64,000 bases of DNA from Candidatus Omnitrophota bacterium (GCA_015232565.1 JADFZK010000010.1:987-64986), one strand, 5' to 3'; counted from the first letter of the stretch, positions 14,253 to 41,575 are shown. A program made the numbers and translations. The notes: generated from the sequence alone by a model not told the origin.

Positions 14253-14292
14253 AGGATCTTTCTGGCCGCCCAGGCCGCTGATTAAATTATCC

Positions 14293-23123: not shown

Positions 23124-23708
23124 ATGAAGACTTACAACCAGACCACGGCGGCTTGTTATATTTACACTTTCAAGAAGGGCCTGCTCTCTGCTTTGGCCCA
23201 TGACCTGAAGATCCAAGTTTTTAAGTTTGAGATAAAAACCACTGGCAGTACGAAGGATACCGCGGACTGGAAAAACATTGAGGCCAGGTTTGATGCCGCC
23301 AGCCTACGCACTGTTTGCGCCATGAAGGACGGCGCGCGCTCTCCGGCAAAACTGTCGGATCAAGACAAGCGCGATATTGACCGGAACATCATTAATGCGG
23401 TTTTACACTCGCAGGAATTTCCCGGCATCACCTTTCGCTCCAGCAGTATTACCCGGCGAAAATCCGGCGTGGTTATCAAAGGCGCACTGACCATTTGCGG
23501 CCAAACCCGCACCATTACTCTCCCGGTCCAGGAATTAAATACCTGTTATCGCTCCGAACTGGTCATCGACCAGCGCGACTTTGGCATCCAGCCCTTCAGC
23601 GCCTTAATGGGAGCAATGCAAATTAAGCCGGAGATCATCGTGCGGATCGAGCTGGGTAAGGTTACGGCGAAGGCACCGCTATCGGAGCATTGTCCGACAG
23701 ACCCATAA
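23124..23708 (+). CDS. YceI-like periplasmic/lipid-binding domain protein
   Basis: ITFRSSSI...GVVIKGALTICGQTRTITLPV resembles the conserved core of the YceI family. The 3' end overlaps the convergent giant gene by 47 nt. Confidence 0.5.
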   Translation: MKTYNQTTAACYIYTFKKGLLSALAHDLKIQVFKFEIKTTGSTKDTADWKNIEARFDAASLRTVCAMKDGARSPAKLSDQDKRDIDRNIINAVLHSQEFPGITFRSSSITRRKSGVVIKGALTICGQTRTITLPVQELNTCYRSELVIDQRDFGIQPFSALMGAMQIKPEIIVRIELGKVTAKAPLSEHCPTDP

Positions 23709-26700
23709 ACTCTGGCAAGGCCACCAGCAATGGACTGATATCAACAATTATCGGCGCAAGGCCCACAGAACTTTGTAATTGCCGGATCATCGCCGGATCA
23801 AGATCAAATTTAACGCCTGGCCCTTCACCCTCCAACCGGAGATCGAGCTTGTCCCGGGCCAGATCAATACCGCCCACCTCGTCAATGAGCCCTACGGCTG
23901 GTGCACCCGCCATCGAGCTGTCAAACGGGACAAGATAAGCCTTGGCCGCACCAGTTGAATCCAGGTAGTACTTCCCACCCAGATAGCCGCCGATCTTGTC
24001 CAGGCCGTAATCCACTTCCTGTTTTCCATACCGGTTTTCAACAAAACCTCCCGAACCAAAATACTTCCCATGCCCCGGCTGGCCGATAAGAAAGCGCCTT
24101 GCGCCAATATGTTGGGCGAATTGCCGTGCATACTCGACCATGCCACTGCCCACCGCGTTCATTAAAGGCTCGATGCGCTCATAATCAGCATTGATCTCCA
24201 GGTTCTGGATCACCAGGCTGCCGTCCGTGGCGATATACAACCACGCCGCGGCCATGGTCTTTTGCGTATCTTCATCAATGACCTCAAGGACATTCAGCCC
24301 TTCATCGATCAGCCGGTCCATCATCGCATCCGGATATTGATTGGAATTCATCCCCAAACAGCAATTGGTAAAATCCCCGATAAACAAATCGTGCCCAGGA
24401 TTACGCAGGATCGGCCTGACCAAAAAATGCCGACGCTGTTTCCCAAGATCCTTTTGATATTCCGGATTATCCATCCTCGCCTGGAGCGTGGCAATACGCT
24501 CGCCCAAATGCGTGACCATTTCCAGCAGAGGAACATTGTGCTGAACATTCTCTGCTGAAACCAGCCTGCTCTGTATTGCTAACAGCATTTTCAGATTAGT
24601 ACGCTCCGCGATCGCCGAAACGATATCGCGCTTCTTTGCAGCGCCCACCACCCTAATGGCTGACACCAGCCCCCGAGGATCCCTAACAGCCGCCAGGCCG
24701 CTCTGTTTTAAGAACTGCATCAACGCCTCACGCTGGTCAGGCTCCAGCTCAGCATTCAATGTATTCACAATGTAATTCGCCACCACCCCGGCATCAGCCA
24801 CCGGGTCGTACTCTTGCATGGAATTCTCATGATACAGAAAAGCCCCTTCCGGCATTCTGCTGTTTCCGGCTCTGCCTAACCAGCGCTCAACATCGATCCC
24901 CGCACCAGCCAGAGCCTCACGCACCAACTTGTTGTGCTGTGCGATCAACTTTCCCTGTTCATTCGCCTGCTCGGTGTCTTCTATAAAAACCCAGAACCGC
25001 CCCTGCAACATGGCCGCTACCAACGCCCGAAACCGCTCATATTTCTCCGGCGTATTTCCCTTTATAAATAACAAAGCATCCCGGATCCGGGAAAGATAAG
25101 GCATATATAAACTTTGCCCCGCCTCCGCCGAAACTGCTTCGGCGGGAACTTCAAGATAACTGGCGAGCTCACCCATGAACAAGCCCTCCAGGTGCTTCGC
25201 CAGATCCGTAACGCTCATTGGCTCTGACAGGGCGTTGAGTATTTCTACGCAACGCCGGCCTTTCCCCAGATCAATAAACCCCGCCATCGTGTTAATGACT
25301 TTAAATAATGTCGTCATATCTACCCGAAAAGCCTTTCGCGAAATCTTTTCGTGCTCCACCCGCATTCGTTCCAGCACACCGCGCAAAGCCTGCATAGCCG
25401 CCCCATTGCGCAGAAAACTTTGTTTGCTTCCCAGAAACCTGACCACTACCGGCACGCCACCATTATTCTTCAGGGAAGCAGTAATATATTGCGCGCCTTG
25501 TCCGGGCAAAAAAGCCTCCAAAGCGCCCACCAGCGGCAGATATTCCCTCTGAAACACATCTCGGCTGATCTGGCGATCCTCGGAGGATCCTTTGTTCGCT
25601 TCATCCAAAGCCGACACAACATCCGTTAGCAAAGCGTCTTCACGCTCCACGCTCGGCACATCGAGACCAGACACCCAATCAAGAACATATGCATTGCCGA
25701 GCACCAAAAGCCCCCGGCGATCCCAGAACTCATACTGCTTTATTGCTTCAGGCCCCGTCTGGCCTTGCTCAACCATTCTCAGGCAAAGCGCTCCTAGTGC
25801 ATTTACAATAGCGCATTGTACAACCATCCTGGCACTCTTCAGTCGGAATTCCAGATCACCGATTGTCATTCGACCCTGCTCAACCTCCCTTATGTAAAGC
25901 AGGGTCAACGCATTCCCGATATTACGCAACGCCTCTGAATCATACTCGACCTTCTCAAGCGCCTCCATATCAACAATTGCCATCTTCCCGAGCTTGATGC
26001 GAAGCGTGTTTAGCGCATTCCTGAACGCAGGCTCTATAAGTGAATCATTGGCGCTCTTTTCCGCACGAGCCTCAAAAGCCTCCATTGTCATTTGCCCTTG
26101 TTCCACCCTCCTCAGGTAAAGCGTCCCCAGCGTAAGCGCAATCGCACACCGCACATTTACCGCTTCAATTTTATACTCGGACTCCAAAGCCTCTATAGTC
26201 AATTTTTCTTGCTCAACCAGGCTTATGTACAGAGCGATCAACGCCTCATGGTTCGCCAGCCTTAACTCTGAATCACCCAGTGTCCTCAGACGACTCTCCA
26301 GACCATCTTTGGTCCATCGGCCTTGCTCGATCAAATGCAAATAGATCAACACCAACCCATTCATGATCGCCCTGCGCACCTTCCAATCTTCTTCCGTCAT
26401 TAAGCGTAATTCTAAAGCCTCCTTGGTCGTCTGACCCTGCACCACCATCTTTAAGTAAAGCGAGCCCGAACCCTTTATGATCTGCGGCACTACATCCAGA
26501 TTTGGCTCACGCTTCAGGAAAGCCTCCATAACCTCCGCTGACACTTGTCCTTGTTCGAGCTTCCTTAAGTAAAGCTTACCCAGCAATTCAAGCGCTTGCT
26601 GAAGACTTTGATTGCCTTCTACCGCCCTCCAACGGTTTTCAAACATATCCAAGGTCATCCGGCCTTGCTCGACCATCTTCTCGTCAAACATTAGCACCAC

Positions 26701-28419
26701 ATCAACAAGCGCACGCTCCACTGCGGAATCATGCTCTTTATTAATACGGGCCCTTAAAACATCCAAAGAGATCGCCCGGCCTTGCTTGACCATCCTCGAA
26801 TATAGCAAGCCCAGCGCATGCACAACCGCTTGCCGCCCATATCGATTGTCAACCTCCAGGCGAGCCTCTAATGCGCCAATCGTCATTGTTCCTTCTTCAA
26901 CCATATTTAAATAGTGCACACCCAACGCATTCACGACAACGTGCCGCAAATACACATTCTCCAGGCGAGCTTCTAATGTGCCGATCGTGATTTCGTTTTG
27001 CTCGACACTCTTCACATAATGAAGGCCCAACACGTTCTCGATCGCGTCCTTCACGGCCTGACCCCCACTAGCACTCATCAGGCGGGCCTCTAAAGAATCT
27101 ATTGTCAACAGGCCTTTCTCGACCATCTTTGAATAAATTGCAGTCAGCACAGCCACCAATGCTTTGTTCACAAGCGAATACGCTCTGTTTGGCTGAGACT
27201 CCAGGGCGATCAGTTTCTTAAAGAAATTTTCCGTTTTATCAGGACGGGCTGTTTGTCCGGCGTCAACATTCATCTGCGCACCATCTATCATTGCCATATC
27301 TATTTTCACAACGACCATGGTATGGCTAGACGAACCTGCATCAAATTTAGCGCGATCCCTGGTTGTACGATAAACCAGCGGATCAACAATACCGGAGAAA
27401 CCCACGCCCCCGGAGAAATACTTCCGCGGGACCGCTTGCTGAGCGGCCGGATCAAGATCGTCCTTTATATAATTGAATGAACCCTTCCTGAACGCCTCAA
27501 CATATTGAGCCCAAATCTGCTCCTTCTCCTTCCTGTTCTCAATATCCACGCCGCCAGTCTTCCTTTGGTCAACATAGGCCCCGCCAAAGACGGTCTCCCT
27601 GACCTTGTCTTTATACCAAACCGCCAGGATCAGCGCAGAATAGACCTGACGTAATTGCGCAAAGTTTTTGCCTTCGTTGATCTCATTTTCAAGTATCGGG
27701 ATCACTACTTCGCGTAGGATGTTTTTGGCGATTTCGTTTGGGGCAATTGTGGGGTTTGGCGTTGAGGTAGAGACCTGGGTTGCAAAATAATCCGTTTCGA
27801 GCATTACTTTTAGGCGGCTTTTTATTACATAGGCCGCCTTTTGGTTTTCGTACACTACTGCTTTTTCCGGTACGATCCATACTTTGTTGAAGGTATCGAG
27901 CGGGATATCGGTGGTGCCGTATTTGGCATATACGGCCTTATAGACCCGGGCCCAGAAAGCCCTGCCGATTTCTCCTTCCGGATAAATAACCGATGCCGTA
28001 ACCTGCTTAAGCAGATAATCCTGGGCCAAAACATCACGCCCCATCTCCGTAACACCAAAAGCCTCCGGGACAATACGCTCGCGCTCGTATGGAGAAAGGT
28101 TTACCCAAAGATCTTTCTCGGGAACAGTGACCGAAGTCAGGAAGTACTTTATCAGGCGGGACGATTCCGCTCTCAACTCCTCGGCCGATGCACTGGAATC
28201 GCCTTGATCAAGTATAAATTCCAAACGGAACGGATTTTCTCTATCAACCTTAATACCTTTTAACAAAGGCGCCTGGAAGGCCGAGCTCAAACCCACCATC
28301 TGGCCGGGCGCGGGCAAAAGAACACTCTCCGCACGAACACCTGTTGCGGTTAGCAGAAAACAGATCAAGGTAACAAAAGCCACCCACTTACGCACGCACA
28401 CCCCCCCTACAACTGCCAC
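23662..28419 (-). CDS. Giant (1585 aa) secreted protein with about 11 tandem ~37-aa alpha-helical repeats (HEAT/PBS-lyase-like?)
   Basis: It has a signal peptide. A central array of repeats follows the form [VR].AI.NALG.LYLR.VEQG.MT.EALEARL. The C-terminal domain is Gly/Tyr-rich (GHGKYFGSGGFVENRYGKQEVDYGLDKIGGYLGGKYYLD). Confidence 0.6.
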   Translation of the reverse strand: MAVVGGVCVRKWVAFVTLICFLLTATGVRAESVLLPAPGQMVGLSSAFQAPLLKGIKVDRENPFRLEFILDQGDSSASAEELRAESSRLIKYFLTSVTVPEKDLWVNLSPYERERIVPEAFGVTEMGRDVLAQDYLLKQVTASVIYPEGEIGRAFWARVYKAVYAKYGTTDIPLDTFNKVWIVPEKAVVYENQKAAYVIKSRLKVMLETDYFATQVSTSTPNPTIAPNEIAKNILREVVIPILENEINEGKNFAQLRQVYSALILAVWYKDKVRETVFGGAYVDQRKTGGVDIENRKEKEQIWAQYVEAFRKGSFNYIKDDLDPAAQQAVPRKYFSGGVGFSGIVDPLVYRTTRDRAKFDAGSSSHTMVVVKIDMAMIDGAQMNVDAGQTARPDKTENFFKKLIALESQPNRAYSLVNKALVAVLTAIYSKMVEKGLLTIDSLEARLMSASGGQAVKDAIENVLGLHYVKSVEQNEITIGTLEARLENVYLRHVVVNALGVHYLNMVEEGTMTIGALEARLEVDNRYGRQAVVHALGLLYSRMVKQGRAISLDVLRARINKEHDSAVERALVDVVLMFDEKMVEQGRMTLDMFENRWRAVEGNQSLQQALELLGKLYLRKLEQGQVSAEVMEAFLKREPNLDVVPQIIKGSGSLYLKMVVQGQTTKEALELRLMTEEDWKVRRAIMNGLVLIYLHLIEQGRWTKDGLESRLRTLGDSELRLANHEALIALYISLVEQEKLTIEALESEYKIEAVNVRCAIALTLGTLYLRRVEQGQMTMEAFEARAEKSANDSLIEPAFRNALNTLRIKLGKMAIVDMEALEKVEYDSEALRNIGNALTLLYIREVEQGRMTIGDLEFRLKSARMVVQCAIVNALGALCLRMVEQGQTGPEAIKQYEFWDRRGLLVLGNAYVLDWVSGLDVPSVEREDALLTDVVSALDEANKGSSEDRQISRDVFQREYLPLVGALEAFLPGQGAQYITASLKNNGGVPVVVRFLGSKQSFLRNGAAMQALRGVLERMRVEHEKISRKAFRVDMTTLFKVINTMAGFIDLGKGRRCVEILNALSEPMSVTDLAKHLEGLFMGELASYLEVPAEAVSAEAGQSLYMPYLSRIRDALLFIKGNTPEKYERFRALVAAMLQGRFWVFIEDTEQANEQGKLIAQHNKLVREALAGAGIDVERWLGRAGNSRMPEGAFLYHENSMQEYDPVADAGVVANYIVNTLNAELEPDQREALMQFLKQSGLAAVRDPRGLVSAIRVVGAAKKRDIVSAIAERTNLKMLLAIQSRLVSAENVQHNVPLLEMVTHLGERIATLQARMDNPEYQKDLGKQRRHFLVRPILRNPGHDLFIGDFTNCCLGMNSNQYPDAMMDRLIDEGLNVLEVIDEDTQKTMAAAWLYIATDGSLVIQNLEINADYERIEPLMNAVGSGMVEYARQFAQHIGARRFLIGQPGHGKYFGSGGFVENRYGKQEVDYGLDKIGGYLGGKYYLDSTGAAKAYLVPFDSSMAGAPAVGLIDEVGGIDLARDKLDLRLEGEGPGVKFDLDPAMIRQLQSSVGLAPIIVDISPLLVALPEFMGLSDNAPIAVPSP

Positions 28420-28557: not shown

Positions 28558-29478
28558 TTATTTCAACTTACCGCGGATATGCACCAGGCATTTGCGGCAT
28601 TTGTCTTTTTTGTCGGCGGCGCGGCCCTGCATCTGGCCGTCGCACCAGGTATGATCGATCTCCCAGCACTTGGCCCCATGATTGGGAAAGGAAGGGCACT
28701 GCACCTGGCGTTCGGGCGGGCAATTAAGGATCTCCCAGCAGTTGGATTTCATGGTCGTCGCGCAATAAACCTTCAGATCGCCGGTGTGTTTGCGCATGTC
28801 CCCGATCAGGCGGTCCCAGGCTTCCTTGCTTTCCAGATCCTTGGGTAAAGGCCGCCGCTCGATCCGTTCCAGGAACATTTCCACCTTGCGGCAATGATCC
28901 CGCAGGGCATCGAGCAAATGTTTGGTGCGCACATTTACTTCATCATCAGGCATGGCATCGCGCCATACCTCAAAGCCGCCCAGCACACGGCCTTTCTTGT
29001 CGATCAACGGCCCCGCCGAAACCACTATCGCATGCTCACGGCCCATGCGGTCGTTCACTTTCACCCTCTTGCCCACCACCGACTTACGCGTCTTCATGGC
29101 CTGCTTGATAGCGCAATGCCGCTCACAAAGGTCGCTGTTAAAGATCTGCGCGCAATTTACCTTGCCCACTGCATCGTTGAGCTTTAATCCGGTGAATTCC
29201 AGGCAAGCCGGGTTCATGAACTGGATCTTCATGTCCTTGTCGACCACAAAAAACGGGTAGGTGGAAGCGCGCAGGATGCTAACGGCAAATGCGGCCATAT
29301 CCTCAAATTCACCGAAAGCCTTGGTTTTGGATGACAGGAAATCCAGGAAATCGTTCTGGGCTCCGTCTTCTTTAGGCTCGACGACCTTTTTACTGCCATG
29401 CGAGGCTTCGGTAGTCTTTAAGGGCTGTTTAAACTCCCTGAGCTCACCCAGGATCCTGGCCATGCGATCGAAATTCAT
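28558..29478 (-). CDS. PAS-domain protein with C-terminal Cys-rich (8 Cys) putative metal/redox-sensing module
   Basis: The PAS-like core is FFVVDKDMKIQFMNPACLEFTGL...GKVNCAQIF. The C-terminus reads NCWEILNCP..(5)C..(8)CWEIDHTWCDG..(12)CRKC. Confidence 0.55.
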   Translation of the reverse strand: MNFDRMARILGELREFKQPLKTTEASHGSKKVVEPKEDGAQNDFLDFLSSKTKAFGEFEDMAAFAVSILRASTYPFFVVDKDMKIQFMNPACLEFTGLKLNDAVGKVNCAQIFNSDLCERHCAIKQAMKTRKSVVGKRVKVNDRMGREHAIVVSAGPLIDKKGRVLGGFEVWRDAMPDDEVNVRTKHLLDALRDHCRKVEMFLERIERRPLPKDLESKEAWDRLIGDMRKHTGDLKVYCATTMKSNCWEILNCPPERQVQCPSFPNHGAKCWEIDHTWCDGQMQGRAADKKDKCRKCLVHIRGKLK

Positions 29479-30386
29479 TATCCGCCTCCCAAGTCAGTAT
29501 AAAGATCCACTGTGTCAATTTCCGCAAACGCGCCCGTAAGCGCGGCCCGCACAGCGCCCGTTCGCTCCAGCTCCTCGGCTACCAGAATGCCCGTCGGCCC
29601 CTGTAAAGTGATCCCCAGCCAAAACTTCTTGCCGACCCGCCGGAACTTGATATTGCGCACGCTGTAGGGCGCAAAGTCCCGGGCCACCAGCACTTCGATC
29701 CGCCGCCGGAACCCGGAATCCGGCACCTGGTCGAGCACCGCCTGCAGATTGCTGGTCCAGTGCCCCAGGGCATCTTTGACGATAATCGCCCCCACTATTA
29801 AAGCCGCAAACTTGTCGCAAATCGCGAACGCCGGCCCGATCTGCGCCACCAAGATCGCCACGATCACCGCGCCCGACGAGAAAAGATCCGCCCCGGCATG
29901 ACAGCCATTAGCCACCAATCCCGGGCTATCCAGCCGGGTGCCGGCACAAAAATTATAACGGTACATCATATACGTCAAGAAAGCCGACACTACCACGATC
30001 GGGAGCGCCATAATATCCGGCTGGACAAACTCCCGCCGGAAGATCGCCAGCAAATTTGACAACACAATATATAACCCCAGGCCGATGAGCACACTAAAAG
30101 CAGACAGCGCGGCAATGAACTCGGCTTTGGCATAACCAAAAGGAAAACGCTCGTCCGACTGCCGGCCGGAAAAAACCAGGCTGATCATAATAAGGATACT
30201 GGTAGCCACACAAGACAAGGACTGCAAGCCGTCCGCGATCAGCCCGGAACTGTTGGTAAATACCCCGCCCGCCAGCTTGAGTCCCGACATCACCACATTG
30301 CCGGCCACCGTCCACATAAGGATCTTTTTGGAACAACTCCGGCAGACACCCAGATCTTCCGACGGGCACATTGGCTGTTCGCTCAT
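29478..30386 (-). CDS. mamB: Cation diffusion facilitator (CDF) transporter, MamB-like (N-terminal CxxC)
   Basis: It has the CDF signature FGYAKAEF, six TM segments, a C-terminal cytoplasmic domain, and an N-terminal CRSCS motif like the CxxC at the MamB N-terminus. Confidence 0.65.
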   Translation of the reverse strand: MSEQPMCPSEDLGVCRSCSKKILMWTVAGNVVMSGLKLAGGVFTNSSGLIADGLQSLSCVATSILIMISLVFSGRQSDERFPFGYAKAEFIAALSAFSVLIGLGLYIVLSNLLAIFRREFVQPDIMALPIVVVSAFLTYMMYRYNFCAGTRLDSPGLVANGCHAGADLFSSGAVIVAILVAQIGPAFAICDKFAALIVGAIIVKDALGHWTSNLQAVLDQVPDSGFRRRIEVLVARDFAPYSVRNIKFRRVGKKFWLGITLQGPTGILVAEELERTGAVRAALTGAFAEIDTVDLYTDLGGG

Positions 30387-31273
30387 GCCGGCTCCTTTTG
30401 CACAAAACCCACCAAAAGCTCATGCGGCACCGTGAACTTTTTATGCAAAAGCTCCCGCACCTTGCGGCCCTGCGCCACCGCTTCTTTCATGGAAGACTCC
30501 CCGGCCACCTGCAGGGTCACCATGATCTCCAGCAAATGCCCCGACCGGCTGACCCGTAAGGCCGCCAGCCCGACCGCCGGCCGGATACGCAGGATCAAGG
30601 CCCGCACCTGACCCACGGTCTGCGGATCGCCCGACGCATCCATCAAACCCTTAAACGCCGACTTCAAAAAAGTGCAGCCGTAAATGATCAAAAAGAACGC
30701 GGTCAGGATCGCACAGGCGTAATCCAGCAAGGAAGAACCGTTCCGCGCTATGATCACCGCAACAACTGTCATAATGGAAAGCAAAAAGTCTGCATTCAGC
30801 AAAAATGAAACTTCCCGGGCATCGATCTCCGGAACATTCCGGCCCGCCGACCGGATCCACCACATGAGCCCCAGGCTGGCCAATGCCGTGGCCAGCGCCA
30901 CCCCCGCCGCCAGCATTTGCGGCGGATAAAGCGTATGAAAGAAAACCATATGCCCGATCGAGAACAAAAGCGCACTGGTGCTCAGGGTAATTATCATGGA
31001 CGTCCCCAGGACAATGATAAATTCCAGCTTGTCCGGATTAAAATACATCCGGCCCGCGCGCCCGGGATGCGAACGCCCGATCCGCACCAGGCTCACTACC
31101 GCGATAAACACCCCGAACAACGCAAATATACCCGCCACCAGCAGACACTTGGAACCGGCGATCACGCCGAACACCACCTTGAGCGCTCCGGAGGCCAGGA
31201 AGAAATAGAACAGCGCGTAAGCCGTTAATTCTTTCTGCTCTTTTACAGCGTCGAAACTCTTCTTTATCATCAC
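30383..31273 (-). CDS. mamM: Cation diffusion facilitator transporter, MamM-like
   Basis: It has CDF topology and is ATGA-coupled to the preceding CDF gene. It lacks an N-terminal CxxC. Confidence 0.55.
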   Translation of the reverse strand: MMIKKSFDAVKEQKELTAYALFYFFLASGALKVVFGVIAGSKCLLVAGIFALFGVFIAVVSLVRIGRSHPGRAGRMYFNPDKLEFIIVLGTSMIITLSTSALLFSIGHMVFFHTLYPPQMLAAGVALATALASLGLMWWIRSAGRNVPEIDAREVSFLLNADFLLSIMTVVAVIIARNGSSLLDYACAILTAFFLIIYGCTFLKSAFKGLMDASGDPQTVGQVRALILRIRPAVGLAALRVSRSGHLLEIMVTLQVAGESSMKEAVAQGRKVRELLHKKFTVPHELLVGFVQKEPA

Positions 31274-31298: not shown

Positions 31299-32042
31299 TT
31301 AGGGCGCGGCTTGTAACCCCAGGATAGTATGGCAATTGGAACACACACCCCGAAAATTATGCGGCACCTGCGCGGTAGCCGCGGGAATAGCAATGTCGGG
31401 ATTAACCACATGGCAGTTCTCGCATACCCCGCGGAACTGGTGCAGCATCTGGGCATCACGAAATATCGGCGGCGGGCTTAAAGGCTGAACAGCCGCCACT
31501 CTTTGCAAACCGGTATTGCCCTGCACCGGCACCCGCAACATTCCCTGGCAGCGCGGACAGCGCGTATAACCGCGGTTCCAGTAGTTAGCGTCGTTAAAAA
31601 CAAAATTGCACTGCGGGCAACGTAAAGCTCCGGCGTTCTGGCCGGCCCCGGCTCCTAACCCCAACCCCATACCCATACCCGGCTGTCGGCCGGGAACCGG
31701 GCACGGCACCCAGGCCGCGGGCTGGGCGCAACCCGGCGTAAAACCCACCTGCTGGGCACACCCGGGAGCAAACGCCACCGGTAACGCACCCGTCGCCGGC
31801 GCCGGTGCGCCCGGAAAACACTGGGTCACTGTAGGACAAGTGGCACAGGCCGGCGGCACATATGCCGCCTGCTGGCCAGCGGCCGTACCCGCGCCAACCG
31901 GCTGTCCGGGCAATGGCACATCGCCGCCCTTGAACATGGCCACGCAAAACAACGTGACCAGTAAGGTGACCGTAATGCCCGCGATCCAGACATTCTTTGC
32001 ATTGGTCGTCGTACAACTTGTGCCGTCTTTATCGTGCTCCAT
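31299..32042 (-). CDS. mamT: Membrane-anchored double-magnetochrome c-type cytochrome (MamT-like) with zinc ribbon and Gly/Leu repeats
   Basis: One TM segment is followed by a GMGMGLGLGAGAG stretch and a zinc ribbon (RCPQCN...RCPRCQ). The C-terminus has two P..H..RG.C..CH motifs (PPIFRDAQMLHQFRGVCENCHVV and VPHNFRGVCSNCHTI). Confidence 0.7.
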   Translation of the reverse strand: MEHDKDGTSCTTTNAKNVWIAGITVTLLVTLFCVAMFKGGDVPLPGQPVGAGTAAGQQAAYVPPACATCPTVTQCFPGAPAPATGALPVAFAPGCAQQVGFTPGCAQPAAWVPCPVPGRQPGMGMGLGLGAGAGQNAGALRCPQCNFVFNDANYWNRGYTRCPRCQGMLRVPVQGNTGLQRVAAVQPLSPPPIFRDAQMLHQFRGVCENCHVVNPDIAIPAATAQVPHNFRGVCSNCHTILGLQAAP

Positions 32043-32075: not shown

Positions 32076-32522
32076 TTATATTCCGCCTGGACGGATACCC
32101 ACCCGGCCGTAAACCAGCGTTTGCTTGCCTGCCCGCTCTACCGTAAACGTTACCCGTTCATTGATCCCGGTGGTGCGGATCAAATACTGAGACTGGTCCT
32201 GGCTTATTACGCTCGCGCCATTCCAGCGTTGCAAAACATCGCCCTCGCGCAAACCCGCGCTCTCGGCGGGCGACCCCTTGAAGACCCGCGAGACCAGAAC
32301 GCCATTGGCCGCCATCAGGTCATACTGGCGCCGCACATCGGCCGTCAGCTCGATGGTCTCAACCCCCAGCCACAGCCGGGGGTCCACAGTCCGGAACCGG
32401 AAGTTCCACCCGTCAGCAAAAACCATCACCAGATAAACCACCGCCACCAGCACCAGGCCCGCGGCCATATTGATGATAGTGGCCTTGGAGCCCTCCTTGC
32501 TATACCGCCCGGACTGACTCAT
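32076..32522 (-). CDS. Small membrane-anchored PDZ-domain protein
   Basis: One TM segment is followed by a PDZ domain (GVLVSRVFKGSPAESAGLREGDVLQRWNG). Confidence 0.55.
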   Translation of the reverse strand: MSQSGRYSKEGSKATIINMAAGLVLVAVVYLVMVFADGWNFRFRTVDPRLWLGVETIELTADVRRQYDLMAANGVLVSRVFKGSPAESAGLREGDVLQRWNGASVISQDQSQYLIRTTGINERVTFTVERAGKQTLVYGRVGIRPGGI

Positions 32523-33361
32523 GGCTTCTTCCCCTCGGGACTTTTCGCGCCGATCCGAACTTTAACGCTATCGCACTTTAAACAATTAAAACAGCGCACA
32601 CACACCGAACTGCCGGGATCGTCGCTGATATTAATATCCACCGGACAAACCTCGCGGCATTTCTGGCAGTCCCGGCATTTCCCGGGGTCCACATCAAGCT
32701 GTAACAGGCTGTGCCGGTTAAAGAATCCGAATATCGCCCCCAGCGGGCACGCCAGCTTGCAGAACGGGCGCTTGGCAAAAACAAAAAAACCTACGAACAA
32801 GACCGCGATCAAAACCTTGATCACGAAAAGAAAACCCAGAGTGGAAGTGGCTACCGCCGGCTCACCGTAAACCGGAATGACCGGATTCCACAAGACCCAC
32901 GGAAAAGCCGCTTGCAATGTTCCCATCGGGCATAATTTAGAGAACGAAGTCTCCTGAGTTACCAGCGGGAACAGCACCACCAGCAAAGCCAGCACCAGAT
33001 AACGCGAAACCGCCAGTTTGAGAGGAATATGGATCTTGATACTTTTGATTTTGTACAACAAGTCCTGCATGAACCCGAAAGGGCACAACCAGCCGCAAGC
33101 CAGACTGCCCACTGTCACTCCGATAGCCGTCAGGTAACCTGCCACCAGGTAGGGGAACTTATGGATGGTCATAAAATGCTGGATGGTCCCGATGGGGCAG
33201 GAGAAGAACGCCGACGGACAACTGTGGCAATTTAAGAACGGCACGCACGCGCTTTTAAGCGGGCCCTGATAAACCTGCCGGGTCTTGAAGAACCCCAGAT
33301 ACAGGTTCGACAAAACCAGCGTGCACCACTGCACCGTTTCCCTTAATCTTTGCAGATCCAT
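32519..33361 (-). CDS. NapH/MauN-type polyferredoxin membrane protein (paralog of 14763..15650)
   Basis: The start is refined to MDLQRL at 33361 by alignment with the paralog. It has CHSCP, CGWLCPFG, CPMG and CPLG motifs. The C-terminus carries CRDCQKCREVCP and CVRCFNCLKC. Confidence 0.65.
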   Translation of the reverse strand: MDLQRLRETVQWCTLVLSNLYLGFFKTRQVYQGPLKSACVPFLNCHSCPSAFFSCPIGTIQHFMTIHKFPYLVAGYLTAIGVTVGSLACGWLCPFGFMQDLLYKIKSIKIHIPLKLAVSRYLVLALLVVLFPLVTQETSFSKLCPMGTLQAAFPWVLWNPVIPVYGEPAVATSTLGFLFVIKVLIAVLFVGFFVFAKRPFCKLACPLGAIFGFFNRHSLLQLDVDPGKCRDCQKCREVCPVDINISDDPGSSVCVRCFNCLKCDSVKVRIGAKSPEGKKP

Positions 33362-33365
33362 AAAC

Positions 33366-33497
33366 CTACTCCAGTCCAATGCAGGCCATACACATGGTCG
33401 CGCCGTTATTTTGCGTTTCCAGCGCATCGTTAGCGCTGTCGCCGATAAGGAATAAAATAAAGACCACAAAAAGAACCAGTATCACTTTTTTACCCAT
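33366..33497 (-). CDS. Small (43 aa) signal-peptide/membrane peptide, not in the ORF track
   Basis: It is preceded by a GGGAGG Shine-Dalgarno site. The translation is MGKKVILVLFVVFILFLIGDSANDALETQNNGATMCMACIGLE. Its stop lies 3 nt before the refined NapH-like start. Confidence 0.3.
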   Translation of the reverse strand: MGKKVILVLFVVFILFLIGDSANDALETQNNGATMCMACIGLE

Positions 33498-33528
33498 CCC
33501 CAACCTCCCGGTTCACACCCGCCAAATT

Positions 33529-33882
33529 TTATTGCGCTTCAATCCAGGTCATATGTTCCTTACACCGCGGACAGACCGGAAAACCCATCTGACCGCAGGC
33601 CGGGCACACAAAGTTGCCGGCGAACCCGTTCCAGAACATAGCCACCTTGCAAGTGGGGCACATCGGCACGCCCTTCGAACCGCATTTAGGGCATACCGCG
33701 TTAACATTGTGCTGAATAACTTTCATAACCACGTTATTACGGATCAAAGCCCGCGCCGACAAGGACTGAAACTTGCCGACCGCGTAAGCGGTATATACCG
33801 ACAAGAACACCACCAGCAAGGCCCCGGTGATAATAAGCCGGCCGCGATCCTGTTCATTAATGCCCGACTTTAACTGCGCCAT
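33529..33882 (-). CDS. Membrane-anchored double zinc-ribbon protein
   Basis: One TM segment is followed by CPKCG..(6)CPTC and CPACG..(6)CPRC. Confidence 0.5.
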   Translation of the reverse strand: MAQLKSGINEQDRGRLIITGALLVVFLSVYTAYAVGKFQSLSARALIRNNVVMKVIQHNVNAVCPKCGSKGVPMCPTCKVAMFWNGFAGNFVCPACGQMGFPVCPRCKEHMTWIEAQ

Positions 33883-34592
33883 TAAAATACCCTCACTTTC
33901 GGGCTGACCAGCCCGGCATCCAGCGGGGACGCCACCGCCACCACCTCATGCATGGCGCCATTGCACTTCGGGCAAGCAGCCGGCATTTTCCCGCCGGCAG
34001 CCGTCTCCGACAAACGATAATTGCAGTCAAAGCAAATATAAAACTTCCCCTGCACAATACGTCCCAGGTTCGCCTGGGTATCAAAAGAATTACAGGCCAC
34101 CGCCTTCTTGCTGTTGGTAATACCAAAATGCGCCGGCACATTTTCAGCCGTCAATTTAGTCAGGCCATCCGGGAAATCATTCAAAGCTTGCCAGGCGGTA
34201 CCATGGATATCGGTATACACTTCGACCCGCGCCGCGTCGAAAACCCGGAACGGCTCAAAGCCCACGTTATTACCCAACACCACATCCACATTCATCGCGG
34301 CCAGCATTTGTGCCGAGCGCAAGCCGGCGGCGTGCTGGCTGTCCATGAATTTGTTCGGCACAGCCTTATAGGTCTTCTTGGCGCGGTCACAAATAATATA
34401 GAACGGCGCCCGCCCGAAAAGATAAGATACCGGGCTGGTTATATCCTTGCCCGTAGCCGCGATCGCCACAATGACCGCCTTGCGGCCGGTAAGCACCAGC
34501 GGATTACTTTGCTCCCAGGTCATTTGCCCGATCACCGCCCCCAGGGCGGCAAGAAAGATCAACAGGAACAAGAGCTCTTTATTTTTGATCAT
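33882..34592 (-). CDS. Membrane-anchored NifX/NafY-like domain protein with C-terminal zinc ribbon
   Basis: It has a signal/TM segment, then KAVIVAIAATGKDITSPVSYLFGRAPFYIICD...VVLGNNVGFEPFRVFDAARVEVY, a PF02579-type pattern. The C-terminal zinc ribbon is CFDCNY...CPKCNG. Confidence 0.6.
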   Translation of the reverse strand: MIKNKELLFLLIFLAALGAVIGQMTWEQSNPLVLTGRKAVIVAIAATGKDITSPVSYLFGRAPFYIICDRAKKTYKAVPNKFMDSQHAAGLRSAQMLAAMNVDVVLGNNVGFEPFRVFDAARVEVYTDIHGTAWQALNDFPDGLTKLTAENVPAHFGITNSKKAVACNSFDTQANLGRIVQGKFYICFDCNYRLSETAAGGKMPAACPKCNGAMHEVVAVASPLDAGLVSPKVRVF

Positions 34593-34764
34593 TTTATAAT
34601 TATGTCTTTTTGTAGATTTTCACAATGAGTATACAATTTTAACATTTCAGACCAAAAAAAATTACGTCCGCCTTAACAGTCTCACAACGATTCACAACCA
34701 CTCATGAAACCCAAATCATTACCTCATATGCCATGAACCCGAAACCCGCCGGTTGCAGTGTTGC

Positions 34765-35150
34765 GGCGCAAAGGTAAAGCCTTTTGGCTCGCTGATGATC
34801 CTTTCCGCCGCGTTCATAGAATTTAGAGCACCGCTACGGATAAACCAACCCTCATTATACAATCCGACGGGGTTTGAGTCGGATGGCAATAGTTGTAAAA
34901 GATCCAACGCGTTAGACATACCCTCCGCGCTGCTCTAAATTCATGAACCCGGATAATGCACCAACACATAAACGACATGCACCCAGCCGGGTAACCTTGG
35001 CTAACATAAAACTCTCAAATCGTTGGCCAAGCTTGAGTTTTATGAGCCAACCCTTCGGGCGGATTTTTCTATTGAAAAATCCGGGATTAACGCCCTTGTA
35101 AACACAGTGGCGGGGATCATATGCGAGCCAAAAGGCTTTACCTTTGCGCC
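34765..35150. repeat. Non-coding element bounded by perfect 28-bp terminal inverted repeats, with internal hairpins (MITE-like or structured RNA)
   Basis: ggcgcaaaggtaaagccttttggctcgc at 34765..34792 is the exact reverse complement of 35123..35150. There is a second internal near-inverted pair (aatttagagcaccgc / gcgctgctctaaatt) and a hairpin at about 34995..35050. No convincing ORF is present. Confidence 0.5.
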
Positions 35151-35221
35151 TTGCAGGTGCGCCCACGCCTGTTTTCTACCAGCAACTCATGCCAATCATG
35201 CCACCACTAAACACTTTTGTT

Positions 35222-35932
35222 CTATTTAATAGGCAAAAAGCCTTCCATCTCGCCTTCACCGACCCACAGCACGGCCTGTTTTTTGCGCGTACTGCGCAAA
35301 TAAGTGATCTTGTAATTCTTCTCCGGCGGCACCGCGGCCAGCATAGCCTTGAACTGCTTGAAGCTGGTAATATCTTTGGCGTTAAAAGACAGCAGAATAT
35401 CTCCCGGTTGCAACATCGCCTTGGCCGCCCAGGAATTGCCCATGACGCCGGTGATCTTAACCTTGCCCGCGCCCACTTCTACCGCCTCCACGCCCATTAT
35501 CTTAACCAACTCCGGCGCCGCCTGCCCCGGCTCAATAGCCGGCGCTCCGGTCATAGCTGCGGCCATGGCACCGGGCTGTAACATCATTCCCGAACCACCA
35601 TAAACTTGCGGCTGACCCTGTCCGGCATAATAACCTTGCCCACCACCCTGGCCCGCATAAAAGCCCTGGCCGCCACCCTGCCCGGCATAATACCCCTGAC
35701 CCGCCCCTTGCGCGGGATAATAACCCTGCGCCCCGCCGGCGGGAGCGCCAGCCGCAACCGGACAAACAAAACCCGGAGTATTCAAAGCGGCCTGCTTAAA
35801 CATATCGGCGGTCTGCACCTCATGAAAAGCATCCTGCGCCGTATCCTGCACCGTGTTATTATTAACCGCGGCAATTACCAGCACCACCAGAAAAGTGATC
35901 CCGCAGATCATAATGATATTTTCTTTGCTCAT
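35222..35932 (-). CDS. Membrane-anchored protein with (A)GQGGGQG[YF]Y tandem repeats and a C-terminal PDZ domain
   Basis: One TM segment is followed by GAQGYYPAQGAGQGYYAGQGGGQGFYAGQGGGQGYYAGQGQPQVY. The PDZ domain reads VKITGVMGNSWAAKAMLQPGDILLSFN. Confidence 0.55.
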   Translation of the reverse strand: MSKENIIMICGITFLVVLVIAAVNNNTVQDTAQDAFHEVQTADMFKQAALNTPGFVCPVAAGAPAGGAQGYYPAQGAGQGYYAGQGGGQGFYAGQGGGQGYYAGQGQPQVYGGSGMMLQPGAMAAAMTGAPAIEPGQAAPELVKIMGVEAVEVGAGKVKITGVMGNSWAAKAMLQPGDILLSFNAKDITSFKQFKAMLAAVPPEKNYKITYLRSTRKKQAVLWVGEGEMEGFLPIK

Positions 35933-37021: not shown

Positions 37022-38824
37022 TTACGGGAGCAGACTTAAAAAGATGATATAAAAAGACGCGAGCACAAGGACCACAATAGCGAACGGAATACCCCGGCGG
37101 CTATAACTGGCAAACGATAAACCTTCCTTGTTCTTGAGGTCTTTCCCCATTTCCTCTACCAGCGTTTGCGAAACCACCCCGGCGCTGGCGCCCGAAATAC
37201 AAGCGCACGCCCCGGCGATCGAGCCCAGGTTGAGCGCCCACCACACCACATCGGTAAAATCCGCAAAGCCCGAATGCATAACTATCGGCACCAGAAAAGC
37301 GGTGGCCGGCCCGGCATTCATCAGGGCGGTAAAGATCGCCATGGTGAGCATCAGCAAAATAGGATACAGGATCTTGTTGCCCATGGACAGCGTGACCAAA
37401 GTATCCGACACCACTTTAAGGAGCCCCGAATACAAAGCGCCGCCCACGATCAAAAACAAAGCAATAAAGAACAGCATGTCCGTGAGGCTGATCTTCTTGA
37501 TGACTTCCCGCGCCTTGTGATTCTCGAGCGCCAGCAAAAGAAAACCGCCGCCCAGCGCGATAGGCGCCAAACGCACTTTAAAGAACGGCAGCACCAAGAA
37601 AGCCACCAGCACACAACCTAAAACGATCAAAACCCGCTTGATCCGCGGCCAATCCATCTTCATAGCCGACAGCTCGTCTTCCACCTGAGCCAGGAAAGCC
37701 TTCTCCAGCTTGATGGAACGGTGCTTCTCTTTATGGCGGAATTCGGTGTACCACATGAACCACAGGAAAACGCCCAACAGGATAGCGCAGATCGGCCCCA
37801 TGACAATAAGGAAATCCAGGAAAGACAAACCGGCGGAAGACGCCATTAACATGTTGGAAAAATCCCCCACCGGAGTCATATTGCCGCCGATAACCGAGGA
37901 AATAAGTTCGGATACGATCACCGGGATCGGGTCAAAATTAAGCCCCCGCGCCACATAAATGGTTATGGGAATAACCACCAGAATGATCGAAATATTATTA
38001 ACAAACGCTGACGCCACCGCGGTCACCACGCACAGGGCAAAGACCACTTTCATAGTATTGGCCTTGAACATCACCACTATTTTCTTGGCACAGAATTCAA
38101 AAACCCGCAAGTCTTCGAGAAAAATAGTAAAAATGCTCATGCCCATAAAAATGAAGATCGGGCTCATATGAATAGCATCGAACGCTTCGGTCTGGTTATA
38201 AAAACCAAACGCCGTCCCCGCCAAAAGCATCAGCACCGCGCCCAGCGTAACGCATACTGTACGATTGAATAAATTAAGGAAGAGCATGGCAAAAGTGATC
38301 GCCACGATAACCAGCACCACCAGAATATTCCGGCCGCTGGGTCCGAACAGGTCGACCCCGGCATTCATGGGCAGGCGCTCGCTCATGGTAAGCTTGCCAC
38401 CATTGCGCATGATCACAAAAGTCACTTTATCGCCCGGCTTGTTCTGCGACATTAAAAACGCCAGATGGCTGGCCGACTGGATATCGACATTATTGTACTT
38501 AAGGATCACATCGCCGCGGCGAATATCGATCAGCCGCCGGGCCGCGCCTTTGGGCACATTGTTAACCAGCACGCCCGCCACCACCGGCAGGTTGAATTCC
38601 TTGGCAATGACCGGGTTAACCGTAATGCCGTCAAACTCGATAGCGCTCGAACCGCCCGATTGCGCCAAACGCGGCGTACCGCGCTGGGGCATCTGCCGGC
38701 TGTCAATAAACAACGCCGCCAGGACGATCACCACCACCAAAGCAATGGCCGTTTCCATGAACGGAAAGCTCTTTATGCGCTTCAAGCCGTCTTCCTGCAT
38801 TGACCTTCTGATATTTAACGCCAT
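37022..38824 (-). CDS. PDZ-domain fused to ArsB/NhaD-superfamily ion permease (MamN-like transporter?)
   Basis: An N-terminal TM segment is followed by a PDZ domain (AGVLVNNVPKGAARRLIDIRRGDVIL). A ~450-aa polytopic permease follows, with two repeated halves typical of the ArsB/NhaD/CitMHS fold. Confidence 0.6.
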   Translation of the reverse strand: MALNIRRSMQEDGLKRIKSFPFMETAIALVVVIVLAALFIDSRQMPQRGTPRLAQSGGSSAIEFDGITVNPVIAKEFNLPVVAGVLVNNVPKGAARRLIDIRRGDVILKYNNVDIQSASHLAFLMSQNKPGDKVTFVIMRNGGKLTMSERLPMNAGVDLFGPSGRNILVVLVIVAITFAMLFLNLFNRTVCVTLGAVLMLLAGTAFGFYNQTEAFDAIHMSPIFIFMGMSIFTIFLEDLRVFEFCAKKIVVMFKANTMKVVFALCVVTAVASAFVNNISIILVVIPITIYVARGLNFDPIPVIVSELISSVIGGNMTPVGDFSNMLMASSAGLSFLDFLIVMGPICAILLGVFLWFMWYTEFRHKEKHRSIKLEKAFLAQVEDELSAMKMDWPRIKRVLIVLGCVLVAFLVLPFFKVRLAPIALGGGFLLLALENHKAREVIKKISLTDMLFFIALFLIVGGALYSGLLKVVSDTLVTLSMGNKILYPILLMLTMAIFTALMNAGPATAFLVPIVMHSGFADFTDVVWWALNLGSIAGACACISGASAGVVSQTLVEEMGKDLKNKEGLSFASYSRRGIPFAIVVLVLASFYIIFLSLLP

Positions 38825-40617: not shown

Positions 40618-41526
40618 TTATTTCCGGGCCGCCTGGGCCAAAGCTTTCGGCGTTATGTTCTCTTTACATGTAAACGCCACCGTAACGTCCTTGATCTGCG
40701 TATATTTCCGCATTAAAGCCTGCCGCACTTCCCGCGCAATAGCATGGCCTTCCTGCACCGTGTTACGCGGATCGATAATGATCTCCATATCCACCCAGGC
40801 ATGCTGACCCACCCGACGGGCATGCACATAATTAACGCCCTGGACCTGGCGGTATTTCAATACTTCGGCCTCGATCACCTTTTCCTTGTCGCCGGGCAGG
40901 GCTTCATCGATCAAATTCTTGAACGATTGCAAGCCCAGGGTGACCGCCGACTTGCCGATCATCAACCCCACAAAGATCGCGGCCAGCGCGTCGATGATGG
41001 GAAACCCGATATTGGCCGCAAAGACCCCGAACAAAACCGCGATGCTGGAGAGCATATCGGAACGGTTCTCCTGGGCATTGGCGATCATGGCCGGCGAGTT
41101 CAGCTTTTTGCCCACGCAAAAACCATACGATGACAGGATGAAGTTCGCCAGAATCGCCACCAAAGCGGCAAAGAACGCCGCCATGTGCGGCGGATGTATT
41201 TGGCCGCTCACAATAACCCCGATCGCGTCGATCAAAATCATGCAGGCTATACCAAAAAGCAAAATATAAGCAAAAACCGCGCCCAGGAACTCCGACTTGC
41301 CCAGCCCCCAGGGATATTTCTTGTCGTCCTTGTGGCTCGACAGGCGGACGGTGATGATGACCATCAAAGTCGTGGCTACGTCCGTACCGCTGTGAAAACC
41401 GTCGGCCACCAGGCCTTTGGAATTGGCCGCGTAACCGATATAGATCTGAAATATCGCCAGCGTAAGGTTCCCCATTAAGACGATCCAGGGAACGATCTTG
41501 CCGCATTTAACACATTTTTCTTGCAT
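40618..41526 (-). CDS. mamB: CDF transporter, MamB-like (N-terminal CxxC)
   Basis: The N-terminus MQEKCVKCGK and the motifs HSGTDV and AQENRSDM match the CDF layout. A C-terminal cytoplasmic domain is present. Confidence 0.7.
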   Translation of the reverse strand: MQEKCVKCGKIVPWIVLMGNLTLAIFQIYIGYAANSKGLVADGFHSGTDVATTLMVIITVRLSSHKDDKKYPWGLGKSEFLGAVFAYILLFGIACMILIDAIGVIVSGQIHPPHMAAFFAALVAILANFILSSYGFCVGKKLNSPAMIANAQENRSDMLSSIAVLFGVFAANIGFPIIDALAAIFVGLMIGKSAVTLGLQSFKNLIDEALPGDKEKVIEAEVLKYRQVQGVNYVHARRVGQHAWVDMEIIIDPRNTVQEGHAIAREVRQALMRKYTQIKDVTVAFTCKENITPKALAQAARK

Positions 41527-41575
41527 GCCTGAAACCTTACCTTAAATAAATCGTCAGCGCCAAAGCCTGTTACCC

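Follow-up and report, generated by a model that had tools for sequence, protein, structure and literature searches.

A Cys4-ribbon and NapH-like gene block in an Omnitrophota magnetosome cluster is the cysteine-type copy of an ancient membrane unit with a probable selenoprotein form

How the Fe(II)/Fe(III) balance is controlled in the magnetosomes of deep-branching magnetotactic bacteria (MTB) is the question addressed here through a block of five genes at positions 32076-34592 of a 64,000-nucleotide stretch of DNA from Candidatus Omnitrophota bacterium (GCA_015232565.1 JADFZK010000010.1:987-64986; the whole stretch is called the window below). Twenty Omnitrophota MTB genomes are covered by Lin et al. 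2020 (PMC7602337). In the window, a magnetosome gene cluster (MGC) spans approximately 28.5-48.2 kb, with every gene on the - strand. Its products include a MamE-like trypsin/PDZ protein, a MamA-like TPR protein, a MamQ-like LemA protein and a TauE-family protein, together with a PDZ-CitMHS transporter fusion, four CDF transporters and several PDZ and magnetochrome proteins; MamB/M-like genes are among the neighbors of the NapH-like gene in question. What kind of system does the block encode, and is it, as the initial annotation proposed, the second copy of a PDZ/NapH-like/NifX-like module that has acquired zinc ribbons peculiar to this cluster? The five genes which that annotation had placed in the block were recovered at the same positions, and with the same identities, by Pfam and motif scans. 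They are, in the order of transcription:

33882-34592, - strand: NifX2, 236 aa, with an N-terminal membrane anchor, a NifX/MTH1175/ORP-like domain (PF02579) and a C-terminal Cys4 ribbon.
33529-33882, - strand: ZnR117, 117 aa, a single-pass membrane protein bearing a tandem pair of short Cys4 ribbons (each CPxCG-x6-CPxC; from motifs).
33366-33497, - strand: 43-aa membrane peptide, the Cys form of the NapH-partner peptide, with the tail ...ETQNNGATM-C-MA-C-IGLE (called in related contigs).
32519-33361, - strand: NapH2, a Mad6-like NapH-family polyferredoxin membrane protein (Fer4_5).
32076-32522, - strand: PDZ2, membrane-anchored, with a single PDZ domain (PDZ_2, 3.4e-10).

The open reading frame (ORF) lister places the start of the 43-aa peptide two codons earlier, at a TTG. 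The TTG start listed for NapH2 at 33469 is an artefact, because its orthologs begin at the ATG at 33361. PDZ2 has a syntenic ortholog in every related locus. The comparisons that follow give good support to reading the block as the cysteine-type copy of an ancient membrane unit of two genes, those of the peptide and the NapH-family polyferredoxin, situated inside an MGC.

The partner peptide was surveyed in 80 species-level loci that had been selected by their NapH-like protein. It was found to be encoded in 69 of the 80, nearly always 140-330 nt upstream of the NapH-like gene. In the peptide, which is about 45 aa long, a basic N-terminus precedes a single hydrophobic helix, and the acidic tail ends in (N)G(A/S)x(L/M)-C-x-x-C-(I/M)G(I/L); from the flank charges of the helix (+2/-2), an N-in/C-out orientation is predicted. 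No Pfam or NCBIfam family matched it. The peptide and NapH-like pair was also present in candidate division WOR-3, Zixibacteria, Stahlbacteria, Ignavibacteria and others (L035-L087), with no Mam genes nearby. In 19 of 50 loci outside magnetotactic bacteria, an exported AhpC/TSA-redoxin was a neighbor of the pair, and a Pyr_redox_2/Fer4_20 pyridine-nucleotide-disulfide oxidoreductase was encoded near it in some non-magnetotactic loci. A partner peptide upstream of Mad6 was not mentioned in the literature searched, to which the foundational 2013 mad-gene paper did not belong.

The first cysteine codon of the peptide was a Cys codon in 47 loci and TGA in 22 loci. The TGA form was found in all Desulfamplus loci and in most other Desulfobacterales MGC loci examined (D. 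magnetovallimortis included), as well as in several other lineages. In D. magnetovallimortis BW-1 (L021), the tail is ...NGATL-U-TSCIGLG, with the TGA codon written as U. A reading of this TGA as a plain stop was rejected: in the TGA loci the codons after it still encode xxCIG..-stop, and they vary synonymously from locus to locus (CTG/CTT/CTC/CTA for Leu, TGT/TGC for Cys, ATC/ATA for Ile and GGC/GGG/GGA for Gly). Because the downstream codons change synonymously and the protein is kept, translation appears to continue past the UGA. Moreover, the UGA is followed by a hairpin resembling a selenocysteine insertion sequence (SECIS), with its apical loop at +22 to +25 and with G-rich or GU loops; its geometry is close to that of the Escherichia coli fdhF SECIS. 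When ten Desulfobacterales sequences were aligned, 98% of cells paired, compared with 28-65% in slid controls, and one compensatory UA/CG pair was observed. In nine other sequences, 79% paired, compared with 41-62%; four pairs changed on both sides, and the covariation score was reached by none of 500 shuffles. Rfam at its gathering threshold returned no SECIS family, tRNA-Sec being its sole match. Taken together, these data suggest that the TGA-form partner peptides constitute a probable new selenoprotein family. Pairs of selenocysteine (Sec) and cysteine forms mark redox-active sites (PMC9312934), and the exchange between the two at this residue thus argues that the partner peptide is redox-active. 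In the literature searched, which did not include some key subscription papers, nothing was found on selenocysteine in MGCs or on selenoproteins associated with NapH.

The proposal that 32076-34592 is a paralogous second copy was borne out by a first copy at 13824-15879; the NapH and NifX pairs are similar, and the PDZ pair weakly so. The first copy and the genes of the selenocysteine machinery are as follows:

15703-15879, - strand: first-copy partner peptide, a candidate selenopeptide (...TSSTL-U-LSC-IGIQ-stop) with an in-frame TGA at 15727-15729, the position of which is Cys in 47 homologs.
14763-15626, - strand: NapH1, a NapH-family polyferredoxin (Fer4_5, 2.2e-18), in the same arrangement in L027 and L032.
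14293-14763, - strand: NifX1, membrane-anchored and without a ribbon (PF02579, 5.4e-18); it has no cysteine at all.
13824-14252, - strand: PDZ1, with an in-frame TGA at 13923-13925 (...INGR-U-TTNLRAIG...), at which the PDZ match is broken off.
13688-13782, - strand: tRNA-Sec (selC), directly downstream of the first-copy module (Rfam RF01852, 75.1 bits; ARAGORN, tRNA-SeC).
12296-13681, - strand: selA (NCBIfam, 465.8 bits versus 267.9).
10374-12320, - strand: selB (NCBIfam, 301.8 bits versus 242.25).
21391-22983, 7.6 kb upstream: selD, above the NCBIfam cut-off, with a C-terminal AhpD-like domain.

The first-copy peptide gene was previously unlisted. It has 58 codons, a good Shine-Dalgarno sequence and an ATG start, and reads ...NPFEDYQTSSTL-TGA-LSCIGIQ-TGA. 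The stem homologous to the hairpin described above is weak here (4-6 pairs, with a bulge), and other pairings are favored by RNAfold. In PDZ1, the TGA falls in the middle of the PDZ domain, and the next 32 in-frame residues complete the domain. This TGA, the 32 downstream residues and a following hairpin are kept in L027, L032 and L038 (two Omnitrophota genomes and one deltaproteobacterial genome), which makes the PDZ1 TGA a candidate selenocysteine or read-through site. In the same three loci the tRNA-Sec again follows the NapH1/NifX1/PDZ1 module. Judged by their sequences, the genes of the first copy would form a Sec-type unit (UxxC peptide, NapH1, NifX1, UGA-containing PDZ1, selC, selA and selB) flanked by MamE-like proteases. 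As an observation in its own right, a complete selenocysteine machinery is embedded between magnetosome-related genes of the window.

Over 266 aa, NapH1 and NapH2 share 42% of their residues (E 6e-95); for NifX1 and NifX2, the identity is 34% over 123 aa (E 5e-18). A recent duplication was considered as the origin of the second copy and rejected: NapH2 shares 56% identity with Planctomycetota proteins and 51-52% with Elusimicrobiota-like ones, but 41% with NapH1, and the split between NapH1 and NapH2 is therefore old. The window thus appears to hold two ancient paralogs, a Sec-type unit and a Cys-type unit, the latter inside the MGC.

The NapH-like proteins were next compared with known families. 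Fer4_5 (PF12801) matched NapH2 at 55.3 bits and NapH1 at 66.4 bits (cut-off, 22). In an alignment of seven sequences, CGWxCP and KLCPxG were invariant, CX3CP membrane motifs were present, and two C-terminal 4Fe-4S motifs were invariant as well (C229, C232, C235 and C239-P240; C254, C257, C260 and C263). NapH2 and NapH1 scored 54 and 61.8 bits, respectively, against NCBIfam TIGR02163 (NapH/MauN; 213.05) and 48.5 and 51.5 bits against NF007013 (234). Because these scores lie far under the NapH equivalog cut-offs, the proteins are called NapH-like here, not NapH; they also fell far under the cut-offs of the NosR and CcoG families (CcoG, 15.5 versus 316.7 bits). Membrane helices with CX3CP and two C-terminal 4Fe-4S motifs are shared with the NapH/NapG quinol dehydrogenase and the CcoG (FixG) cupric reductase, but the window proteins have no napA, napG or cco context. 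We know of no CxxC/UxxC peptide partner for NapH or CcoG.

A closer relationship was found among magnetosome genes. In a species-level ranking of NapH2, Omnitrophota and Planctomycetota proteins came first, followed by those of Desulfamplus and other Desulfobacterales magnetosome loci; NapH2 is 46-51% identical over 268 aa to these magnetosome-locus orthologs, including that of D. magnetovallimortis. On this sequence evidence, NapH2/NapH1 is orthologous to Mad6 of Desulfobacterota magnetosome clusters. Like NapH2, Mad6 is a NapH-family Fer4_5 membrane polyferredoxin encoded within a magnetosome cluster; the window differs in holding two paralogs (Cys-type and Sec-type) flanked by NifX-ribbon, tandem-ribbon and PDZ genes. 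A NapH domain makes up most of Mad6, and when mad6 was mutated in Desulfovibrio magneticus RS-1, fewer particles were formed (PMC4287615). Fewer particles were likewise reported for mutants of FmpB, a protein in which magnetochrome and NifX domains are joined (PMC4287615), and Mad6 and Mad9 have been proposed as redox controllers in reviews (PMC9840458).

The order of the genes was then examined in other genomes. The block (NifX-ribbon protein, 117-aa ribbon protein, 43-45-aa peptide, NapH-like protein, PDZ protein, magnetochrome protein and two CDF genes) was kept in another Omnitrophota genome (L001), in a Planctomycetota metagenome-assembled genome (MAG; L003), where the 117-aa gene is present though uncalled, and in a Hydrogenedentota MAG (L004). 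A species-level genome scan added five Omnitrophota species representatives and one Clostridia-labelled MAG (L019). On Elusimicrobiota-type contigs, a related block consists of an HTH_17 regulator, a tandem-ribbon protein, an uncalled peptide, a NapH-like protein and a PDZ protein. Another tandem-ribbon relative is encoded in a classical mad-type MGC; MamE-like and CDF genes stand on either side of it, and HEAT-repeat and ferredoxin genes are close by. Desulfobacterales MGCs have, in this order, a MamE-Nter-like protease, the peptide, a membrane protein with a degenerate ribbon, and Mad6. Gene order and ribbon cysteines are partly conserved in Elusimicrobiota-like and Desulfobacterales loci. 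Contrary to the initial annotation, the ribbons are not specific to this cluster, because the block recurs in three phyla and tandem-ribbon relatives occur in Elusimicrobiota-type loci and in a classical mad-type cluster. The degenerate ribbon, FVCPxHG-x15-PxCPxCGQxM, stands between the Sec peptide and Mad6 in L021 (9490-9870), L022 (7370-7720) and L014; in the corresponding protein of BW-1, the second knuckle is lost. The gene for this membrane protein may be one of the numbered mad genes.

Within the block, the NifX2 ribbon is CFDC-x16-CPKC (residues 187-210), and ZnR117 carries CPKC-x7-CPTC followed by CPAC-x7-CPRC after one N-terminal hydrophobic helix. Similar ribbons had been reported in three further genes of the cluster:

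31299-32042, - strand: 247-aa protein with a membrane anchor, the CATCPTVTQCFP motif, one long Cys4 ribbon and two magnetochrome (CxxCH) units (MCR, 32.8 bits).
44571-46181, - strand: 536-aa protein with a membrane anchor, a weak NifX-like domain, two long Cys4 ribbons and two magnetochrome units, an FmpB-like combination (from profiles).
43967-44230, - strand: 87-aa protein with a split Cys4, in which CSHC and CKEC flank a hydrophobic hairpin (from a motif scan).

This recurrence was upheld for the 247-aa protein (CPQC-x16-CPRC) and, twice, for the 536-aa protein (CPTC-x15-CPNC and CPNC-x15-CPNC), but not for the 87-aa protein, in which CSHC and CKEC were not matched by the ribbon profile. 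In that protein, CSHC is at residue 7 and CKEC at residue 67, with a 33-residue hydrophobic stretch between them, so arranged that the split Cys4 site probably lies on one membrane face; an ortholog is present in L001, and no Pfam or NCBIfam family matched. The C-termini of the 247-aa and 536-aa proteins (ribbon plus magnetochrome) are 52% identical. The NifX-like domain of the latter scored 23.2 bits against PF02579, under the cut-off of 26.3.

The ribbons were found to be a shared conserved motif, as had been claimed, beyond a scatter of CxxC pairs. In the NifX2 family (56 members, 46-100% identical, nearly all of about 235 aa), C187, C190, C207, P208 and C210 were invariant in 22 homologs down to 46% identity, as were C68 and C167. 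The ZnR117 family comprises 25 homologs, none of them informatively named; across an alignment of 17, five of the eight ribbon cysteines were invariant and the other three nearly so, and the two halves of the protein are, from their common pattern V-CPxCG-xxG-x-P-x-CPxC-xxx-M-x-W, an evident tandem duplication. Relatives of the 536-aa protein carry zero to four copies of F-[VIL]-CPxC-N-W-R-M-x6-(N/G)-x-(F/Y)-P-x-CPNC-G-x-x-M-A, with at least one module in 47 of 57 relatives and an inter-knuckle spacer of 15 residues in 88 of 106 modules. A profile built from these 106 modules was searched on the six-frame translation of the whole window and matched four ORFs only: besides the 536-aa protein, these were NifX2 at E 1.8e-6, the 247-aa protein at 6.3e-6 and ZnR117 at 2.8e-5, the next best match being at E 0.45. 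Because the profile singles out four ORFs across the six-frame window, the recurrence exceeds chance. When a ZnR117-family profile was run against 1.84 billion representative proteins, 38 matches at E <= 1e-3 were obtained, one of them below 1e-10. Nearly all had an N-terminal hydrophobic helix followed by tandem short ribbons, and many added CATCP...C and a long ribbon; two of the 38 were clearly unrelated repetitive proteins. Neither the ribbon profile nor the ZnR117 profile matched in the approximately 50 non-magnetotactic loci examined. A description of these Cys4 ribbons was not found in the literature searched, which did not extend to some key subscription papers.

On which side of the membrane do these cysteines lie? 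Magnetochromes are c-type haem domains, and haem c is attached on the periplasmic/lumenal side. The ribbons of the 247-aa protein, which has a single hydrophobic helix, and of the 536-aa protein should therefore be periplasmic/lumenal, because they stand between the sole hydrophobic helix and the c-type haem motifs. The short ribbons would lie on the same, lumenal side, given that distant relatives fuse short ribbons, CATCP and a long ribbon in one single-helix chain. The 536-aa protein further resembles FmpB ('MamP-like'; magnetochrome, PDZ and NifX/NifB) of D. magneticus RS-1 in having a NifX-like domain and magnetochromes on one membrane-anchored chain, but its order is reversed (NifX first, magnetochromes last), it has no PDZ in the chain, and proteins of its type have one to four Cys4 ribbons inserted between domains; NifX2 differs from FmpB in being separate and without haem. 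A three-cysteine motif, CATCPTVTQCFP (CxxCP-x4-C), was observed at residues 66-77 of the 247-aa protein, with one to three copies in every ortholog; it also occurs in L001, L003, L004, L006, P0142, P0144, P0150 and P0172, and is fused to ribbons in distant relatives. In the 247-aa family, the CATCPxVxQC motif is always present, even where the ribbon is absent.

The most economical model that we infer for the block, and one to which we give an even chance, is a trans-membrane redox relay that feeds lumenal Cys and haem centres. Because the first copy appears to use selenocysteine, a redox relay that serves the formation of magnetic crystals is the probable function of the block. The NapH-like protein would take electrons from the quinol pool or from a cytoplasmic donor via its two [4Fe-4S] clusters and membrane CX3CP cysteines, and would exchange them with the CxxC/UxxC tail of the peptide on the periplasmic/lumenal face. 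From the peptide tail, electrons would pass to lumenal cysteine centres and to the magnetochrome haems, which would set the balance of Fe(II) and Fe(III) for the growing crystal. The cysteine centres would be the Cys4 ribbons (possibly rubredoxin-like Fe(Cys)4), the CATCP...C motifs and a NifX-like cluster carrier, and the PDZ proteins would organise the partners and hold them together. A functional analogy is offered by the thiol-disulfide relays of the DsbD/CcdA type, in which a membrane protein is likewise paired with an extracytoplasmic CxxC acceptor; the non-magnetotactic pairs lie near exported TlpA/AhpC-like redoxins, and Sec/Cys exchange is typical of thiol oxidoreductases. The analogy goes no further than function: no sequence relationship was seen, and here the membrane partner carries Fe-S clusters.

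Several points weigh against this relay. The Fe-S clusters of characterised NapH are on the cytoplasmic side of the membrane. The argument from Sec/Cys exchange covers the peptide and not the ribbons, and PDZ2 has Ser, not Cys, at the position of the PDZ1 TGA. The ribbons of ZnR117 and NifX2 could be cytoplasmic, because their flank charges are ambiguous (+1/+3 and +1/+1, respectively). The ribbon of the 247-aa protein is dispensable, being present in two of five Omnitrophota orthologs in the species-level scan and absent from the Planctomycetota and Hydrogenedentota orthologs. Possible states of the ribbons include a structural zinc site, a redox-active iron site and a disulfide. Finally, a Foldseek search with ZnR117 yielded generic zinc ribbons only (the PriA cysteine-rich region and TFIIB, E >= 0.009).

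The last of these points is also the first in favor of a different explanation, in which the ribbons are structural zinc or disulfide docking knuckles that, together with PDZ proteins, scaffold magnetosome-membrane complexes, electrons being carried via Fe-S and haem alone. In the AlphaFold2 model of ZnR117 (pLDDT 77.5) the knuckles form beta-hairpins, and the ribbon models overall have short strands around each knuckle (pLDDT 75-85); with two CxxC knuckles on beta-hairpins, by motifs and models, the proteins have the features of zinc ribbons. The Pfam matches are to zinc-ribbon families (Zn_Ribbon_TF, Zn_ribbon_6 and DZR), all of them below threshold (best, 26.6 versus 29, 24.1 versus 25 and 23.4 versus 27.3). 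A copy number of zero to four and loss in some orthologs are what adaptor modules would show, and many PDZ partners are available within the cluster. The knuckles fused to magnetochromes must, however, be periplasmic/lumenal, which is unusual for classical zinc ribbons, and the ribbons always co-occur with redox proteins. Moreover, CPxCG knuckles are present among the ribbons, and the NifX2 ribbon weakly resembles a rubrerythrin-like Fe(Cys)4 domain (NF033497, 18.6 bits; cut-off, 32); the Pfam rubredoxin family had no match among the ribbon proteins. We regard a purely structural docking function as possible, on the unlikely side. The comparison with known knuckles also bears on an alternative that the initial annotation had raised, namely that the ribbons are generic elements. 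A CPxC(G) knuckle pair on beta-hairpins is shared with the TFIIB ribbon, the PriA cysteine-rich region and the rubrerythrin C-terminal domain, and the tandem arrangement resembles double zinc ribbons. The window ribbons differ in falling below every curated threshold, in their stereotyped flanks (F-x-CPxC-NWRM...FP-x-CPNC-G-x-x-M), in their probable periplasmic/lumenal location and in being found, among the loci examined, exclusively with magnetosome-type loci. They thus appear generic, as ordinary zinc ribbons, at the level of the fold, but narrow and context-bound at the level of the family.

The NifX-like proteins bear most directly on a further alternative, that NifX-like domains and ribbons act as Fe or Fe-S carriers to the mineral, possibly an iron sulfide, and that the peptide/NapH pair only keeps thiols reduced. 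PF02579 (Nitro_FeMo-Co) matched NifX2 at 53.8 bits and NifX1 at 65.5 bits (cut-off, 26.3). The NifX2 core matched profiles of MTH1175 (1.3e-16), TM1290 (2.1e-16) and ORP (7.7e-9), and when its predicted structure was searched with Foldseek, all three were found with probability 1.00, the best structural match being the Desulfovibrio gigas orange protein (ORP; 2wfb; TM 0.85 normalised by target, rmsd 1.4 Å). The core thus belongs by sequence and predicted fold with the MTH1175/TM1290/ORP branch of the NifX-NafY family; NifX2 differs from that branch in its membrane anchor, its C-terminal Cys4 ribbon and two extra invariant cysteines, and in its magnetosome surroundings, where neither nif nor Mrp genes lie close by. 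None of the window's ORFs was recognised as a nif gene, and the setting is a magnetosome cluster, not that of nitrogenase cofactor assembly. In favor of iron carriage, metal clusters are bound by proteins of the NifX/ORP family, NifX1 weakly matches MrpORP in NCBIfam, C68 and C167 are the two invariant cysteines of the NifX2 family outside the ribbon, and two CDF iron-transporter genes follow the block. The Mam proteins of Omnitrophica, moreover, were found to group with the greigite subgroup, even though magnetite is the mineral that these bacteria are believed to form (PMC7449369). However, a NifX1 devoid of cysteine would be a poor fit, the NifX-domain protein FmpB occurs in RS-1, a magnetite producer (PMC4287615), and no sulfur-mobilising genes were seen in the block. 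Direct iron delivery by these proteins is accordingly judged improbable. The remaining alternative, that the recurrence of CxxC is chance or composition and the module an annotation accident, might appeal to the commonness of short cysteine motifs and the sub-threshold scores of single Pfam zinc-ribbon families, but is scarcely credible and was refuted by cysteines invariant across families down to 46% identity, by the six-frame profile search with its four ORFs, and by synteny in three phyla.

The relay reading has a broader form, which we put forward tentatively and with rather less than even confidence: the peptide and the NapH-like protein would be an undescribed, widespread two-component trans-membrane redox system, in which the peptide is a new selenoprotein family, and which was recruited as Mad6 and coupled to lumenal rubredoxin-like ribbons. 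If this is true, selenium-dependent thiol/selenol chemistry would take part in magnetosome biomineralisation, including that of Desulfamplus magnetovallimortis, which has the TGA form. Apart from this proposal, the module extends the redox set known for deep-branching magnetotactic bacteria from Mad6 and FmpB, and adds to it a Cys4 ribbon domain specific to the family; some Elusimicrobiota clusters are entirely without magnetochromes. Mad6 gains a conserved partner peptide, and a ribbon-protein family that travels with Mad6 is defined. The probable selenoprotein family, one that is truncated or missed by gene callers, would tie the formation of magnetosomes to the supply of selenium. In many uncultured anaerobic phyla, beyond magnetotaxis, the peptide/NapH-like pair may represent a new trans-membrane route for reducing power. 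In the literature searched (the 2013 mad-gene paper lying outside it), no paper drawing such links was found for mad genes with NifX or NapH, for Omnitrophota clusters, for Elusimicrobiota clusters, or for mad3, mad4 and mad5.

Several further features of the window were observed. The region 34593-35221, a stretch of 630 bp upstream of NifX2, is without a convincing ORF, and L001 has an HTH_17 regulator gene in this place. Such a gene was searched for in the gap at 34593-35221 and was absent from it; an ortholog lies instead at 7827-8414 on the + strand. No Rfam family matched in 34593-35221, and promoter and terminator scans of the region gave results no better than shuffles. The protein encoded at 7827-8414 is a MerR-like HTH_17 regulator with two Cys-rich CW(E/D)YH...CxxC...C...CxxxCxxC repeats, which are also found at 48724-49128 (- strand). 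Orthologs of the regulator lie directly upstream of the ribbon/NapH block in loci L001, L005 and L006, and a PAS protein at 28558-29478 (- strand) has a C-terminal Cys-rich segment weakly similar to the regulator repeats. These proteins may exert redox- or metal-sensing control of the module.

Other genes of the cluster also showed distinctive arrangements. In a PDZ protein at 35222-35932 (- strand), the membrane anchor is separated from the PDZ domain by tandem GQGYYAGQG/GGGQGFYAGQG repeats. The CDF transporters of the cluster occur as two pairs, at 29478-31273 and 40618-42472 (- strand), and genome L001 has an additional CDF-NifX fusion of 364 aa at 15900-16994, downstream of the PAS gene. 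At 37022-38824 (- strand), an N-terminal PDZ domain is fused to a CitMHS/ArsB-type permease, an arrangement that L001 retains in a protein of 600 aa. A gene at 23662-28419 (- strand), at the downstream end of the cluster, encodes a protein of 1585 aa in which a degenerate helical repeat (...LxxLYLRMVEQGxMTxExxEARL...) recurs about 15 times.

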